A DNA stretch of 64,000 nucleotides, taken from NCBI GenBank assembly GCA_965113315.1, contig OZ220365.1, one strand, 5' to 3'. This stretch comes from Podarcis vaucheri. Its lineage: Eukaryota. This document shows, one piece after another, positions 2,546 through 52,700 of this stretch; positions within the stretch are counted from its first letter, which is position 1, and each line of letters starts with the position of its first letter. The notes under the pieces are model-generated. The model was not told the DNA's origin, searched no databases, and saw only the letters and a program-made list of their open reading frames with translations. The position numbers and the translations under genes were made by a program.

Positions 2546-3831
2546 TACTTTGGAAAATCCTGGTGAATGATTTTCACCAAGAGATGGATGGTGGAGTGCA
2601 ACCCTGTTACTGCTTCTGGACTCTCAGCAGCTTTTGATTCCATCAGCCATGGTATCCATGCTTTGACAAAATGGGACTTTGACTTCCTGTTTCTGCAAAT
2701 GGCAAAAAGGAGTGCTAGTCCGATCATCTGACGGACTCAAGCCCCTTGGAGATACAGGGGGAAGCACCAAGGCGAGGTGCACCCCTTAAAAGTCTTGAGA
2801 GGGTTCTCAAGGTGTTGAGGGGTCCAGCAGTCTGCAAAAGGGCTCTCCTGTGACCCTCAAACCCCTGTTCTGAGAGGAACGGGGGGGGGGAGACCGGTGA
2901 TTGAGCCTGCGGACATGGCAGTATTGCAACTCTGCGGGAGCGAAGCCTCAAACTCCCCCCTGCAGCAGAGATCTTCTGAAAACTACATTTAAGCTGACGG
3001 AAACAGAGAAGATTAATTATTGGATCTAACTAGGCTGAATTCGGCACTAGAGGGAGGAATAAAAAGAAAGTCAGATTTGCAGCCTGTCACCTACACTTTT
3101 TTACATTCCAGTGAAACTGGTAGGAGAGGTCATTTGGGGGCTAGAGCAGAAGACAGCTGCATATTCCTGCATTGTACAGGGTTAGACTAGATGATCCTCA
3201 GGGTCTCTTCCCACTCTGATTCCATGAAATCACATTTTTTATACAGAAAACACAATATCTTTTGTTTTATCTGCTTATCCCAGGGAGGCAGTAGATACCT
3301 TAACCAGGTATTTGGAGGCAGTTGTAGGATAAGGGCAAACAGCTTGGAGTTAGTGGAAGACCTCTGATCTGATGAAGGTTTGCAGTCAGTTTTGGACCGG
3401 GCTTCCTCCAACACTGCCCCCCGGTATGAAGTTTGGGGTACTCCTTTGTCTATTGACACCTATGGAAGCACAGGTGACCTCTATATAGGAGGTCTGCCTT
3501 TGACAACAGTTTGGGAACTGGTGCAGAATTAACCCCCCACCCCAAATACTTGTGGGGGCCTGGTGGTTTGATCAGATCACACCAATTTTGCATTAGCTGC
3601 ATTGTTTTCCCATTTATTTCCAAGTTCAATTTGGTATTGATTCTGACATGTAAACCTCAGAATGGTATATAATCTGATGATATGAAGGACTGTGTGTATG
3701 TATGCCCAAGAATGTGACCAAATGCTACGATTGGCCTTTAAAGCCCTGGTCAAGGTCTGTTAAGGTTGATCTGGTTGGTGGGCTTTTGCGATGATGATGC
3801 CATGCTTGTTGAATTCCCGCCCTGGGAACTA

Positions 3832-4149
3832 CAGTGGTGCCCCACAAGATGAATGCCTCGCAAGATGGAAAACTCGCTAGACGAAAGAGTTTTCCGTTTT
3901 GGAGGTGCTTCGCAAAACGAATTTCCTATGGGCTTGCATTGCAAGACGACAATGTCTTGCGAGTTCCTGCTGGTTTTTTCCCCTTTCCCACCCTTTTTCG
4001 AAGCCGCTAAGCCGCTTATCAGCTGATCTGATCAGCAGATAAGCCGCTAATAGCGCTAATCCGTCAATGGGCTTGCTTCGCAAGACGAAAAAACCGCTAG
4101 ACGAAGAGAATCACAGAACGGATTCTTTTCGTCTTGCGAGGCACCACTG
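3832..4149. mobile_element. Tigger-like MITE family B
   Basis: TA|CAGTGGTGCC...CAAGACGAA / TTCGTCTTGCGAGGCACCACTG|TA; three copies in the window. Confidence 0.88.
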
Positions 4150-4183
4150 TAATGCCTAGTTCTCTCGCTTGCAGCCTTTAAAT

Positions 4184-4739
4184 CAGTGTTTCCCAAACTT
4201 TTTTGGGCAACGGCACACCTGTTTACTGAAAAAAATCTCGCGGCACACCACCATTAAAGCCCCGCCCCGTGACGTCAGCGCGCAGCGTCACGCCGGGAGG
4301 GACCCACAAAAGTGAACGTTTTTTCCCTCCCCCTTGCCGGGGAACCTCCAAGCTTTGGGGGTGGGAGGAGGCAGCAGAGCGAGGGACTGAGGGACGGCAG
4401 CAACTGAGGCGGCGGCGGCTGTTGTGGTGGTGGTGGCGATAGCGGGCGGAGGAGGGGGCGGCGGCGGGGCTTGAGGAGCCGTCGCCGGGAGTTGCTGCTG
4501 TTGTTGCTGCTGCTGCCCGGACATGCCGGCCTCCTCCTCCTCCGCTGTCTCGCGCTCCTCCCTTTTGCACGCGCTGCCCCGCCGCTCGGCACCACCACCG
4601 CGGAGCCGCCCCCGGCTCGACGCGGATCCTCGCCGCCGCCACCTCTCACAGACCGACTCGCCCGCCTCCCTCCCACGGCACACCAGCCAATGTCTCACGG
4701 CACAGTAGTGTGCCGCGGAACACCGGTTGGGAAACACTG
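4184..4739. mobile_element. hAT (Charlie-like) MITE with a GC/CpG-rich, gene-like interior, copy 1
   Basis: TIR CAGTGTTTCCCAA / TTGGGAAACACTG; perfect 8-bp TSD CTTTAAAT. Confidence 0.93.
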
Positions 4740-4889
4740 CTTTAAATGAACACTTTCTATGTTCATTTAATTTTTCATGATAATTTTTCAAATATGATTA
4801 TTTACACTCCAAACTATGTGCACATAATTGCATTGTACCAAAAAGTTTTGGGATGTCAGTCTCTCCTTGTCTTCTGCTATAGTACATTA

Positions 4890-5114
4890 CAGTGGTACTT
4901 CAGGTTAAGTACTTAATTCGTTCTGGAGGTCCGTTCTTAACCTGAAACTGTTCTTAACCTGAAGCACCAGTTTAGCTAATGGGGCCTCCCGCTGCCGCCG
5001 CGTCGCCAGAGCACGATTTCTGTTCTTATCCTGAAGCAAAGTTCTTAACCTGAAGACTATTTTTGGGTTAGCGGAGTCTGTAACCTGAAGCGTATGTAAC
5101 CTGAGGTACCACTG
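4890..5114. mobile_element. Tigger-like MITE family A (opposite orientation to the 2108 copy)
   Basis: Same TIRs and interior, TA flanks. Confidence 0.88.
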
Positions 5115-6132
5115 TAATTGCAACACTTTCCTCCCTGAAAAACAAAAGTGGCTATTGCATGCTTAACAGAGGAATTAGAAAGTGCCACATACCTTCTGAT
5201 ATAATGAAAGCCATTAAGCATGTTAGAGCTATTTCCACATAAAACAAAAGTGCTCTGGGCAATTATTGCAACACCTAGAAATGCCTTTCTGTTAAATCAG
5301 GAGTGTTGTAAAATGAAAAGCAAAGTTTGCATGTTGAAACAGACATTTTCATCTGGATGATTTTGAACTTTGTTCACAATTTCTATTACAAAAGAAGATG
5401 TGTGTTTCAGAATCTCACTTATATTTGTCACTTCAATTTTTTCCCCTAGAGCTGCATTCCCAAATTAATCTTGTGTTTTTTTCCTGAGACTACCAATATG
5501 TTCAAGGCATTTATGCATTAAAAGGGGGAGTTTGTTTTAAAAATTACCAAAGCAATATAAGGCGAATCAGCACTCTCAGGCTTCCTACCAGATGCTGATT
5601 TTGTTCTCTGCATGTGTGAAATAAGTGGCTTTAAGAAACAAAGTAAATACAGATGAGAGGGATAGAGCAATTCACTTTTTGTGTTGCTTAGTAATGGCTG
5701 AATACCTGAATAAGCGTATGTTTTTAAGGGAGGGAGATAATAACAGACAAATTACTGGAGGCTAACTCTCATGGAGCATGACAGTTCATGAGCAGGTTTC
5801 TATTTTTATACGAGATATTTTGTATTGCTTGGCAAATCTGCAGTGCTTGGCTATTGAACAGCCTGATGCCCTTGCTTGCAAGATTGCTATTAGTTCTTAG
5901 ATTTTTATTGATGGCCACACTGTCTGTTATTTCAGTACATACACAAATGGAAGTGCATCCTCTTCCTTTGGTCCATTGATTAATAAAATGGAAGCATGGT
6001 GTGACTTTTAATTCTGTAGAAAAGAAATCTGAAACAATACAAAACTGCTTTCTAATGCATTCTTAGTTACCTACACTTTACCCCACAAGCGTTTTGTTCC
6101 CATCTCTCTACCTCTCTCTGTTTTTTATAAAG

Positions 6133-26680
<20,548 letters not shown>

Positions 26681-37700: not shown

Positions 37701-40700
37701 TAATTAGCAACAACACTGTCCTGCAAGACAAAGAATCAAAGATACACACTCAGACCACATGACAGACTGCAAGTCATCAAAACCTCTTTAAAAACACACT
37801 TCAACCTTTTCCTTCTCATCTTTTGCTATTAGCCAACACCATTGCCTGCCAATTTCTACTGTGGCTCCTGAATTCTACTTTCCAGGTGAGTTCAGCTCAT
37901 ATGCCATTGAATTAAATGGGGAAATTCTCACTGGCTTCAGTAGAGCTAGCTTATGGTCAGTGAAAGAGATGGTGCATTTTAGGGAAAGTCACAAATACCA
38001 ACTACCAATGTGTTTTTGACGGAGTAGGAGGGTGCAATTTTCTGCAGCAAAATGGTAAAAGATCTGAAGTTATTGCAATGAAGTATACTGCTGTGACTAC
38101 ACACACACACACACATACACACACACAGACTGCTCAGCAATTCTAAGAAGCCAACAGCAACCTATCCAAAATAGACAAAGCACTCCTCTATGACCTCTAG
38201 AACCATCCTGCCAAATTTGGTTAAGATATCTTAAGTGATGATTGAAAGCATAAGTGTTTAGATCAGTGTTTCCCAACCTTTTTTGGGCAACGGCACACCT
38301 GTTTAATGAAAAAAATCTCGCGGCACACCACCATTAAAGCCCCGCCCCGTGACGTCAGCGCGCAGCGTCACGCCGGGAGGGACGCACGAAAGTGAAAGTT
38401 TTTCCCCTCCCCCTTGCCGGGGAACCTCCAAGCTTTGGGGGTGGGAGGAGGCAGCAGAGCGAGGGACTGAGGGACGGCGGCAACTGAGGCGGCGGCGGCT
38501 GTTGTGGTGGTGGCGGCGATAGCGGGCGGAGGAGGGGGCGGCGGCGGGGCTTGAGGAGCCGTCGCCGGGAGTTGCTGCTGCTGTTGTTGCTGCTGCTGCC
38601 CGGACATGCCGGCCTCCTCCTCCTCCGCTGTCTCGCGCTCCTCCCTTTTGCACGCGCTGCCCCGCCGCTCGGCACCACCACCGCGGAGCCGCCCCCGGCT
38701 CGGTGCGGATCCTCGCCGCCGCCGCCTCTCACCGCCCGACTCGCCCGCCTCCCTCCCACGGCACACCAGCCAGCGTCTCACGGCACAGTAGTGTGCCGCG
38801 GAACACCGGTTGGGAAACACTGGTTTAGATAGACAAACAAAATTTCAAAATATACAGGAGATTGGTGGAGTGGTTAGAGTGTCGGACTAGGAACTGGGAG
38901 AGCAGGGTTCAAGTCCTCACTCGGACATTAATTCCATTGATTGATCTTGGGCCAGTCACTGTCTCTTAGCATAACCTACCTTACAGAGTAAGGGGGTGTA
39001 CCATATACACCACCTTGAGCAACTTGGGAGGAAGAGGACATAAATATAACAATATAAAAAGGGAATCCAGCATTAACAGTACAATCTTCAGCTAAAACAT
39101 AAAAATACTAATGCATACCAGTTTCTCTTGTTTTACATTCTAGAGGCTCAACCCAGAAAAAAAACAGGCATCAAAGTTAATCAACCACTTTCATTTGTTG
39201 ATCAATTCACTTTTAGAGAAATCATATAAATTTACTTCTTCTTCTTTTAAATATTCCTACTCTTACTTAATTATTGCTATCCCAACTGTACATTGGGGTC
39301 AGAGCAGCAACATCAATTAGATGAATTTTTTTTAAAAAATCTTATTTTTGAATCTTTCTTTTTACTAGCATTTCCTAAACATTAAGTTCAGAGCACACAG
39401 CAGAGACCTAAAACAGAAATACTGGTGTCGTATGTACCATATAATATCTCTGGCTACTGATTTTGGAGGAACCCAAATTATCACATGATGAGATCAAAAG
39501 AAAGAAAACAAACATTTGACTGAAATTTGCTGAGGATTTTAAAAAGGGAATTATATGCAGGAGACTTACTCGGGAGTTTTCCTCAACTTTCACAAAAACT
39601 AATAAATATTTTAATATTCAAAAGTGAACTTGCCATGATGGGGAACACACATGTCTTACCCAACTACAGCATATTTTTGTCCATCAACAACAAGGAAGTC
39701 AGTTGGCTTTCTTTCTTCAGGTGCTAAAACAATTGAATAAAAAAGGAGGGGGGATCTAAAATTAAAAACAACACAAATAACACTGCAACTGTCTCTTTAA
39801 AAAAAGGCCCAGGGATGAAAATTACCCTGTTCTTTACTCCTCCATTTCCACTTTATAACACTGGCATGCAGTCCGTGAAGCGGAGGGACTAGCTTGGTCC
39901 CCCGGCGCATGCTCAGGTGCAGAGGGAAGCAGGTTCTTCAACAGAGTCCCTCTATGTACTTTACAATGCAGAGGCGCAAGGCATGCTCTTAGTCAGAAAG
40001 TATGGACAGGGGCTCAGCTGAAGAACCCGCTTCCCTCCATGCACCGCCCACGCAACTTGTAGCACACAGGATTCTCTCACAAACATTGGGTGGGGGGCAT
40101 GTTCCCTTCAGGCGCCTGCTGCTCGCAACTATCCACATCAGCAAAAACTGGGAATTCGGGGGGGGGGGGTCATTAACTTCCAGCCACTTCTGTTGGACTG
40201 AATTCCCAGCGACCCCTTTCTTCCTACTCAGGAGGGTGAAACAGGCAAGTTTGAGGGGATATGTAGCTAAGAAGAGTCGGGGAAGGAGGACACAGCAGCC
40301 TTGGATGGCGGAGAAGGTTGCAGGGAAGCCCCAAGAGTGGGTGGTCTGGGTGGGGGAGAGAGAGTGTGTGCACAGGGAAAACCAAATCCTGCTTCAGATG
40401 GCTTGTTTTGGTTCAGAATTTTGCTTCCATTTGGATCGAAGTGGAACCTTGCTTTGGTTTGTTTTCTGAAGCTTTGAATGTCTTCTCCACTGATAAAGCA
40501 GAGAAAAAGAAAGAAACAGAAGGAAGTGGTAGTGTTGGTCAAGGGAATTCCTGTCCCGTGGACGGGCAGGCAGTCCTCTTCTGACCAATGAGCATGCTGC
40601 AAGTGGGCTGACATGGGAGCTCCAGTCTCTTTGCCGTATGAAGGTTTGTTTTGTTTTGGGCCGCTCCAGCTGCTGCCATTAAGCGAGCCAGGATAGATTC

Positions 40701-49700: not shown

Positions 49701-52700
49701 AGTATATCTATTCTTTGGGCTTTGTATAACTCATGATAGAGAAAGAAAACCGGTTTAGATACCTGGAAATATCAGAAGACCTGAAGACATACATAAAACC
49801 AGTGCTTTTTTTCTGGGGGGACGAATACCCCTAAACATTTTGTGAAACTATGTACTTTTTTCCATTTCCTGTATTTATTTTTCCCAATTTGAACTATAAA
49901 ATGGTGATTTTCTTGAATCAAAATGAGAGTACCCCTAAATTTTTCTTTTTAGAAAAAAGCACAAAAAAACACAAAACATTTAACTACAATATATGTGAAA
50001 GGTAAATATCCCTCAAAAATAAATTACCTGTTTAATTATATTTTTTGCCGTTACAATAATTTCATCTCCATATATTTCAAAAAAATTCAATTTCCTTTGT
50101 TTTAGAAGTCCAAACACTAAAGATACAAGCCTTTCCTATTTAGAAAAAAAAACAAGAATAAAGATCACATGTGAAAGAAAGGTAATCAGAACTCAAATGG
50201 CAGATTAGAACCTAACTAGTGCAGATAAATTAACATGCTAAATAGCAAATCTGTTGGAAAGTACAATAGGAGTTAGTCTCTGTACTATTAAGGTCAAGGT
50301 TTGATTCTGGCCCGGCAGAAATTATTGGCTGCTGTAGAAGCCATGTGCTACAGATGTATACTTTGCATTCATCCCCACATACTACACACAGAAGCTAGTT
50401 CTGCTAAGGACAATACAAGGTACGTATTTGTGCCTTCCATGAATGAAGGAGTGGACAGGTGGTATGCATTATGACACAGCTGAGAAATAAAAAAGAATTG
50501 AATGGGAAATGCCAAAATTAATGCTTTCAAATCACTGAGAGGATTCAAGATGTGTTGGTGAAAATTCATTTTGTAGAGGAGAAGTGAATGGAATAGGCAT
50601 TGACAGCAGTGTGTTCTGTTCTATGTCCTGAGAGGTAATTAGACCGCAAAAAGCCTTCTAAATGGGGAGTACTGTACCTCTTCCAGAATCTGGCATTCTT
50701 CTTCCAGAGGTCTATTTAAGTCACTGTGAGCATAGGTAGAAAACTCTGCAATCATCATTTTATCTATGAGTTTTTCTAATTCACATAGCTGTGATCCAAG
50801 ATGCCTGTTGAAGAAAAAAATGTGTGAAAAAGTTAAAATAATTATGGGAGGGAGCATGAAAGTGCCATTATCTAAATATCAGGAAAATATGGGGATGTAT
50901 AACTATCATCTGGGTAATTTCTACACAATAAATAAAGGACACTGAATACAGTTTATTTACGTTATGTCTTCCTTTGCAGCAAAAGAAAAAAAAAACACTT
51001 TTAAATTCCACTGTGACATTAATGTCAGACATCTCCATGAAAAGAGAACAATTTGCAATAAAATATGCATTCTAATTACACACTTCGTGAATAACCAAAG
51101 ACTCTGGAGAATTCAGCAGTCATGGGAGATGTTGACAGGTCCTCTTAGGGATCAGTAGCTGGCTAAAAAACAGGAAATAGAGGGCAAGAGTAAACTGACT
51201 TCTAACAGTGGAGGTATGCATGGAGTAATGCTTCCCCAAAGATATTTATTGAGGTGAGAGCTATCTATTTTTTTCAATAAAGAGATGGAGTCAGAAGGGG
51301 CAGTGAGAAGACCAAGTTTGTAGACTGCAAGGAGATCTAAAAGGATTTCTAAAATCTGGGCAAATGGAAAACAAAAAGGTAAATAAGAACCAACGCATGG
51401 AGAACAAATCTAAAGGGGCACAATTATAAGTCCAGCAAGAGAGCATCACGGGAATAAAAAAACTGAGCTCCATTCAATGACTATTAGAAAAGCGCTTAAC
51501 ACCCTGACACAAATCTAAGGGAAAGAAACATCTGGAGCACTAGACTGATTTCTGTTCGACGTATCTCAAAAAGGATGACTATCTTCACTCTAAGAAAGGC
51601 TTAGAAACAGGGTTTCTCAAACACCTGAACCCTGGATGAGCTTATGAAGTTCTCATTGACCCAGTGTAAATGAATAAAGTGAGGAAAAACACCTATAGAC
51701 AATTTTTTTAGCAGCAAAGCAGCACAGTCTGAGAATATGGTTGTATTGTGGAATCATCTTGTTCAATACAGAGGTTCCTCACTGGCAAGGGATGCTCACT
51801 CTGCGCATGACATGCCCTTTTCTGCAAGCTTCTTTTCCACCCCTAATTCATTTTGAGCCATAGGTCTTTATTCACTCCTTGCACAGCCCCATCAAGCCCA
51901 GGAGTCATTATCAGCCACTTTGGGAAACCCTGGACTAAAATATAAAGGACCTTTTAGTCTAGAAAACAAGATGTTTTTGGAGGGAGGAGTGTGACAGTGC
52001 TTTATTAAATTATGGATGGTGTGGAGGAAAATAAACAAAGACAACTTTCCACCTTCTCTCATAATACTAGGTGACCTGTACTCAACCATTGATCTTGATT
52101 GGCCTATATTTAGGACAGAGAGGAAGGGCAGTCTGAATACCCTTTACTTTTGCATTTATGTGGTGTACAACTATTAATGTAAATAAGAATTCGCACTATA
52201 TCAAGGATACTTTTAGGGCCTTTTAAAAAACCTGACTAATTACATTCTCACTGGACACTAATATACTGTAATATAATTAACAATATAGTAAATTAGTTCA
52301 ACTCAATAACATATATAAAGATACCACTTATAGGTGGTATGCAGCCAAGCTTTACTCACTTAGTCGTATCCATTAATTTCAACAGCTCTACTCTGAGTTA
52401 AATTTAGTTGAATACCAACTTAGATCTGCATGAACTAGATATCCCTTGAAACTGATCATAATAATTTTATATGTGATTACGAATTTCTACTGGAATGTCA
52501 AATGTCACCTACCGGAAGCTGTGAATGCCCTGGAGCTCCTGCTGTAGCACCTCTTGTGTTGTTGCTATCAAGTCTAACGCTCCAACAAATTCAGAAGTAG
52601 ACAGCAATAGTTGGACAGTAGGTTGTGTTTGGTGCACTGTTGCCATTAACTTCAGTTTATTATATGCTTTTATACAGTTATTTCTAGTCAATGATAATCT

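Follow-up and report, generated by a model that had tools for sequence, protein, structure and literature searches.

The 64,000-nucleotide stretch of Podarcis vaucheri DNA analysed here (contig OZ220365.1; hereafter the window) contains, at positions 4184-4739, a 556-bp non-autonomous hAT element of the Buster/Charlie type. This is a Pack-type hAT with a chimeric promoter cargo, a kind of element that is known in plants and is rare as a multicopy family in animals. With good, though not complete, confidence it is read here as a young Buster/Charlie-type hAT carrying a trimmed mosaic of the RANBP9 and TCF20 CpG islands, which was likely captured within a composite and is likely inert and methylated today.

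Both ends of the element carry the 13-bp terminal inverted repeat (TIR) CAGTGTTTCCCAA, exact at 4184-4196 and 4727-4739, the TIRs being short and beginning with CAG. The 8-bp duplication CTTTAAAT lies on either side, and subterminal motifs of the GGCACAC/GTGTGCC type number two at the left end and three at the right (Table 1), so that the clean hAT boundaries described in the first-pass annotation hold as stated. A genome search with the interior yielded 1,576 first-look candidates, the 40 best-scored of which are all 97-100% identical; all 30 loci fetched from these best matches are TIR-bounded and 28 have a perfect 8-bp duplication, indicating that the element is not a chance arrangement. 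Among the loci fetched, a central TA (positions 4-5) is found in the duplications of 259 of the 261 distinct duplication-bounded family elements. The interior (4260-4675) has 72% GC, 47 CpG dinucleotides and a CpG observed/expected ratio of 0.88, as against 40% GC and a ratio of 0.32 for the window as a whole. The GC- and CpG-rich interior is thus as previously described, while the locus around it had been called AT-rich and requires a small correction: the immediate flanks have 43-49% GC and hold other repeats. Two high-copy MITEs, which we take to be Tc1/mariner-like, flank the element at 3827-4151 and 4885-5116, and the first of these is also missing in a related organism. Elsewhere in the window, near-identical stretches of about 250 bp at 13397-13700 and 51608-51932 have the hAT-like end CAGGGTTTCTCAA at their start and constitute a separate family. 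Exons of UGP2 occur on the + strand downstream of the element, the first about 1.4 kb away and the later ones with matches to Pfam UDPGP, and a CpG island is located 1.75-3.25 kb upstream of the window, which together suggest, in agreement with the earlier placement, that this copy lies in intron 1 of UGP2. The nearest database proteins are Podarcis or Lacerta entries, at 95-98% identity.

Table 1. Coordinates of the element, its cargo blocks and related features in the window
Feature	Position	Strand	Remarks
Left target-site duplication CTTTAAAT	4176-4183	.	TA at positions 4-5; from duplication and family logo
Element left end	4184-4256	+	13-bp TIR and two subterminal motifs; its counterpart in the autonomous partner is the transposase-3' end (73 bp, 90% identity)
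Block A	4257-4400	+	CpG-rich cargo; deleted form of a block of about 450 bp common to sister subfamilies; donor not found
RANBP9 cargo	4401-4549	-	25 bp of 5' UTR, ATG at 4524, start of exon 1 with in-frame 87-bp deletion
TCF20 cargo	4546-4642	+	Pieces of proximal promoter and non-coding first exon
Block E	4643-4673	+	Short, GC-rich, in most subfamilies; donor not found
Element right end	4674-4739	+	13-bp TIR and three subterminal motifs
Right target-site duplication CTTTAAAT	4740-4747	.	
Chimeric 78-aa open frame	4288-4524	-	Starts at the RANBP9 ATG and runs into block A; predicted from sequence
Second copy of the same subfamily	38264-38822	+	559 bp; duplication GTTTAGAT
First UGP2 coding exon within the window	6133-6260	+	Downstream of the element; end approximate

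The capture of a host first exon had been proposed from the appearance of the interior. The peptide encoded on the minus strand gave a single weak database match, to RANBP9 of Podarcis lilfordi (E 7.7). Searching the genome with the RANBP9 protein retrieved a multi-exon gene on contig C27, together with dozens of scattered matches to exon 1 only, and no family TIR was found near exon 1 at this donor locus (L073). There is, accordingly, a single TIR-free locus at which the match enters a real gene, in exon 1 of RANBP9, and the proposal of host first-exon capture is borne out; the exon structure argues against reading the TIR-free donor loci as decayed elements. The RANBP9 cargo of the window copy consists of two exon pieces joined in frame (donor segments L073:5083-5014 and 4932-4854; 91-92% identity with gaps), with the 87-bp deletion (29 codons) between them falling between 6-bp repeats, and ungapped identity to the donor is 96-98% in all ten of the long copies aligned. 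The ATG followed by poly-Gln read earlier on the minus strand opens a 78-aa frame starting MSGQQQQQQQQLPATAPQAPPPPPPPPAIATTTTTAAAAS, with eight glutamines rather than the nine originally counted; about the first 40 residues of the predicted peptide are RANBP9, less the 29 deleted codons, and unrelated DNA encodes the rest. The poly-Leu, signal-peptide-like reading of the + strand was discarded, as it is just the antisense of the RANBP9 poly-Gln codons and its frame has no ATG between the stop at 4405-4407 and the Leu run.

Longer relatives retain more of this donor. TIR- and duplication-bounded elements form a size series of about 1,590, 1,440, 1,260, 1,160, 1,030, 730 and 556 bp, those of about 1,590, 1,260, 730 and 556 bp being linked by shared junctions. 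The type of about 1,590 bp contains the start of intron 1, the whole of exon 1, the UTR and promoter pieces of RANBP9, as well as 108 bp derived from 4.2-4.3 kb upstream. The presence of intron 1, promoter and upstream DNA in these long relatives indicates that the cargo was captured as DNA and not by retroposition. A second CpG island (L073:555-1000; 62% GC, observed/expected 0.88), part of which is captured, precedes the RANBP9 ATG by about 4 kb.

The block to the right of the RANBP9 cargo is longer in siblings that lack RANBP9 (1.36-1.72 kb): there it runs on into 1.3-1.5 kb of DNA from the TCF20 locus, which matches one TIR-free locus on contig C29 at 97-98% identity (one of 14 matches). 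At this donor locus a CpG island is accompanied by a first exon that is likely non-coding, and a large frame with TCF20 proteins as its homologues (98% identity to that of Lacerta agilis) lies 7 kb further on; a query of the ESM Atlas for TCF20 returned nothing useful. The TCF20 pieces in the window derive from L290:1090-1142 and 1233-1289 (91% and 97% identity, respectively) and stand head to head with the RANBP9 cargo, the join CCGCTGTC/CCGCCGTC showing an 8-bp microhomology with one mismatch. Of the single captured first exon originally envisaged, the capture therefore stands, while the cargo is instead a chimera of RANBP9, TCF20 and blocks for which no donor was found. These blocks, A, B and E, make up about 170 bp of the window copy, and that part of the interior is unexplained: in each DNA search the 30 loci examined were family copies alone, or the search led to another donor, and the negative-constraint patterns gave no matches. 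Blocks A and E sit in the outer part of transposase-bearing composites, as might be expected if the interior were native to the transposon, GC-rich DNA from its subterminal or 5' part in which triplet runs arose by chance. Against this, about 240 bp of the window interior match the single-copy RANBP9 and TCF20 loci, the 2.49-kb body of the autonomous hAT matches the window element at 4184-4256 and 4706-4739 only, that is, at its ends, and block A has no match in that body. An origin of the interior as transposon DNA is thus refuted for the RANBP9 and TCF20 parts, and as a whole is scarcely credible.

Other cargoes are encoded in sister elements. The type of about 1.47 kb adds 820 bp from the TIR-free locus L169, at 98% identity (one of 25 matches). 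This locus has tRNA-synthetase exons (Pfam) on one side and, on the other, a frame whose S100P-binding match is weak (E 0.006, under the cut-off), and we take it to be the YARS1/S100PBP promoter. A 1.98-kb type carries DNA of the TIR-free locus L304, where no Pfam match above the cut-off was found among 63 frames; the gene captured from it might be ENDOV. A weak Endonuclease V match (E 0.0019, under the cut-off) was observed downstream of this donor, at L350:6376-6555 on the minus strand. Further sister elements carry a PKA type II regulatory first exon (Pfam RIIa, E 2.4e-15). When elements were sought via the native AT-rich end, 21 of the 22 simple closed elements had 52-56% GC and 51-93 CpG, in a sample made up of the best 30 of 297 candidates and derived from few independent captures. 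Some family cargo is AT-rich, and most cargo searches were seeded with CpG-rich pieces. A subfamily with elements of about 1,445 bp (L316 and L322-L338) accounts for 15 of the 30 AT-rich-end loci and has yet another CpG-island cargo. The minus strand of the element at L341 reads MAAVLAEG...QQGAEARVY, which has no Pfam support and presumably resembles the start of TP53RK/Bud32. A second hAT-like family, with ends CAGTGGCGTAGCGTG and flanking duplications, is nested in RANBP9-bearing elements (L076, L077, L083 and L084). It holds CpG-rich cargo itself, one piece of which, with no Pfam match, we assume to be a transglutaminase-like exon.

The number of copies was determined with a 31-base pattern spanning a deletion junction of the subfamily, which registers exact matches only. 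This pattern gave 380 matches and its control none, which sets a lower bound of 380 on the copies of the subfamily; as an estimate of copy number, the 1,576 first-look candidates were dropped. For divergence, 31 loci were taken in the order of the junction list, omitting those already analysed and one small-contig locus. Both TIRs are within range in 29 of these, with a perfect duplication in 22 of the 29, and mean divergence from the majority sequence is about 1.5% (29 copies and the two window copies). A contig of a related organism joins both flanks of 4184-4739 with about 21 letters between them, and the insertion and the neighbouring repeat are therefore absent there. One sequencing run (X1) crosses the right junction of the window element and shows no differences, and sequence words of the family are present in six organisms. 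Movement after capture is evident from the 380 junction matches, the distinct duplications of individual copies and the empty site in the related organism. The element is a young non-autonomous hAT, and its proposed amplification by a hAT family is supported.

The autonomous partner was reached via the native AT-rich end, a genome search with PF05699 having yielded no locus with family ends among 30. A 2.49-kb transposase body is present in five of the 30 AT-rich-end loci, with an open 626-aa frame in two of the five and frameshifted or interrupted frames in the rest. Its homologues are named ZBED5-like, SCAND3-like or transposase, and Pfam returned a weak Spin-doc zinc finger only. Motifs of the D-D-E type were located in the transposase, their roles being assumed here, and no solved structure matching it was found. 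Amino acid identity is 96% to a newt protein (partial), 93% to Rana (partial), 91% to a snake and 85% to Xenopus, and this identity of 85-96% across newt, frog and snake suggests, from sequence comparison, that the transposase frames are candidates for horizontal transfer. Open transposase frames occur at L342:749-2626 (minus strand) and L343:1666-3705 (plus strand), with more than 80% identity to fish, tunicate and spider proteins.

Several family members resemble intermediates of capture. In the type of about 1,590 bp, the RANBP9 cargo stops at ACTTAAGT and is followed by a complete mini element of 96-118 bp; ACTTAAGT occurs once, and empty, in the RANBP9 donor, and the mini element also stands alone with its own duplication at one of 30 loci. 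At L303 a complete 276-bp element comes first, then GTGTAGGA, host DNA over 1.3 kb and finally an outer end; only the outer ends carry the duplication, and in the donor L304 the GTGTAGGA site is single and empty. In each of the five transposase-bearing copies examined, GATTAGAG and additional DNA come after the inner right TIR, and in four of them the outer end was reached, the duplication there matching; the inner right end has one subterminal motif and the outer end three. The L169 cargo starts with GACTAGAT, fused to an old ACTTAAG, and ends with TGTTAGAG and the mini element, the donor reading TGTCAGAG, while the junction of RANBP9-upstream and TCF20 DNA looks like the target sites ACTTAAGT and CTTTAAAC fused with the loss of a few bases. 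A TA at positions 4-5 is found in seven of eight cargo-boundary 8-mers, ATATTAAC being the one that lacks it, versus 5.6% of donor 8-mers, the eight having been chosen by eye and two of them lying away from any TIR with their frame set after the fact. No target-like site was found at the intron-side boundary of the RANBP9 cargo.

Complete inner ends beside 8-mers that are single and empty at the donor favour capture by neighbouring or nested insertions that move as a unit. No TIR was found at any donor locus today, and we thus infer the insertion alleles at the donors. The transposase would first insert elements at or near promoters; a second nearby end, arising by a local hop or a nested insertion, would then create a composite able to transpose with kilobases of host DNA. 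A RANBP9-bearing element may subsequently have inserted in a TCF20-bearing sibling, with loss of its inner end fusing the two cargoes, and microhomology deletions would have shortened the composite, the 556-bp form being the one amplified most among the forms counted. A route via closely spaced insertions has been proposed for Pack-CACTA (PMC6379663). TcBuster is described as weakly favouring CpG islands and start sites (PMC3499496), and a preference of this type would supply promoter cargo; the present copies, none of 29 of which has CpG-island flanks, do not display that bias. A different origin, by template switching or gap repair (FoSTeST or gap-filling) into a single element with the inner TIRs as later nested insertions, has been published as the model for animal Pack-TIRs with multiple copies (PMC8277862), and would accommodate both the microhomology at the RANBP9/TCF20 junction and internal deletions and the several cargo junctions that have no target-like site. 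With a later nested insertion, however, the inner element would have cargo to its left and right, whereas the inner element here is terminal in the composite and the donor match breaks off precisely at the target 8-mer; the microhomology junctions can be explained as deletions since longer parents exist. Template switching is therefore considered quite unlikely, and capture by neighbouring or nested insertion is preferred. The surviving inner ends, empty donor sites, fused target sites and deletion series make these two routes testable against each other.

Transitions were counted at 102 of 3,688 CpG sites (2.8%) versus 18 of 7,930 other C/G sites (0.23%), variants present in more than three copies being dropped. 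Fast CpG transition is a signature of germline methylation. With CpG loss 12 times faster than change at other C/G sites, the copies are likely methylated, as read solely from the mutation spectrum. Reads from about 12% of two bulk RNA runs of a related organism fall on both strands of the family, to a depth of about 10-120 that is less than the depth on neighbouring repeats; unique flanks have no reads, and read starts do not cluster. The family-matching reads come from other loci and from the parent genes. The 78-aa frame is intact in most copies, as expected at the age of the family. Podarcis muralis has three database proteins, 82-91 aa long (P0003, P0005 and P0006), that run from RANBP9 exon 1 into the TIR-encoded residues WETL; they are likely gene predictions on long copies, in which the captured donor site would be spliced to the left end. 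The element family explains such false RANBP9-like gene models in wall-lizard annotation.

These data bear on the alternative that the CpG-island cargo is retained because it is functional, promoter activity or open chromatin aiding mobility or driving host transcripts. The 52-56% GC of 21 of the 22 simple closed AT-rich-end elements would be in keeping with such a role, few independent captures notwithstanding, as would the splicing predicted for the P. muralis proteins, and bat Helitrons with 5' gene ends are reported to reach higher copy number (PMC4224331). The 12-fold CpG decay, the two-stranded RNA that is no deeper than that of neighbouring repeats and has no site at which many molecules start, the lack of the CCAAT-like part of the TCF20 promoter in the most numerous form counted, and the status of the P. 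muralis proteins as gene predictions speak against it, and a functional cargo is accordingly regarded as doubtful. Somewhat less improbable, and still tentative, is a broader scenario in which a horizontally spreading hAT would harvest CpG-island promoters and first exons by nested or neighbouring insertion, stack them into multi-gene cassettes and scatter these in hundreds of copies, some of which may provide mobile promoters or splice donors, or direct silencing at parent genes such as RANBP9 and TCF20. If true, this would represent a system on the scale of Pack-MULEs in a reptile, with the capture intermediates still in the genome. The family also raises the question of what effect hundreds of methylated promoter copies have on the parent genes.

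High-copy capture of multiple genes by TIR transposons has so far been a plant story, and the present family provides a vertebrate case at scale. No description of the family was found among the largely open-access papers searched, and the family may already bear a repeat-library name with its cargo unremarked. Pack-MULEs show a bias towards GC-rich 5' regions. The plant Pack-MULEs and Pack-CACTA elements likewise hold multi-gene cargo between TIRs (Catoni et al. 2019, PMC6379663), and the closely spaced, direct-orientation insertions proposed for Pack-CACTA fit the lizard intermediates (PMC6379663); they belong to other superfamilies and another kingdom, and the amplified lizard composites differ in retaining complete inner ends. 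Among animals, the one animal-wide survey, by Tan et al. (2021, PMC8277862), reports four multicopy elements, of low copy number, among 370 Pack-TIRs in 100 animals, including Pack-hAT-N8_XT of a frog, which has CAPSL 5' UTR cargo and three copies (PMC8277862). Elements of this kind resemble the lizard family in that the ends of a non-autonomous hAT enclose a 5' fragment of the host, the parent locus has no TIRs and the duplications differ from copy to copy, but the lizard subfamily has at least 380 copies and a chimeric cargo. The filters described for that survey, a unique best hit and a length ratio of 80-120%, would likely miss such a family (PMC8277862). Bat Helitrons, likewise vertebrate DNA elements, have taken up promoters, 5' UTRs and first exons, in some cases one capture after another, and have multiplied this cargo to copy numbers in the hundreds or thousands (Thomas et al. 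2014, PMC4224331), but they are rolling-circle elements without TIRs or 8-bp duplications and capture by another route (PMC4224331). Within lizards, genomic DNA is incorporated by the hobo_AC hAT of Anolis, whose copies also recombine with one another (Novick et al. 2011, PMC3014272); its described cargo is genomic DNA with old transposable element fragments rather than gene promoters (PMC3014272), and by our reading it represents a different hAT lineage. In target site the lizard family resembles the TcBuster/Charlie group, which shares the 8-bp nnnTAnnn duplication (PMC3499496) and to which the ZBED5/SCAND3-like transposase of the lizard partner also points, while promoter cargo is not among the features described for TcBuster in that account (PMC3499496).
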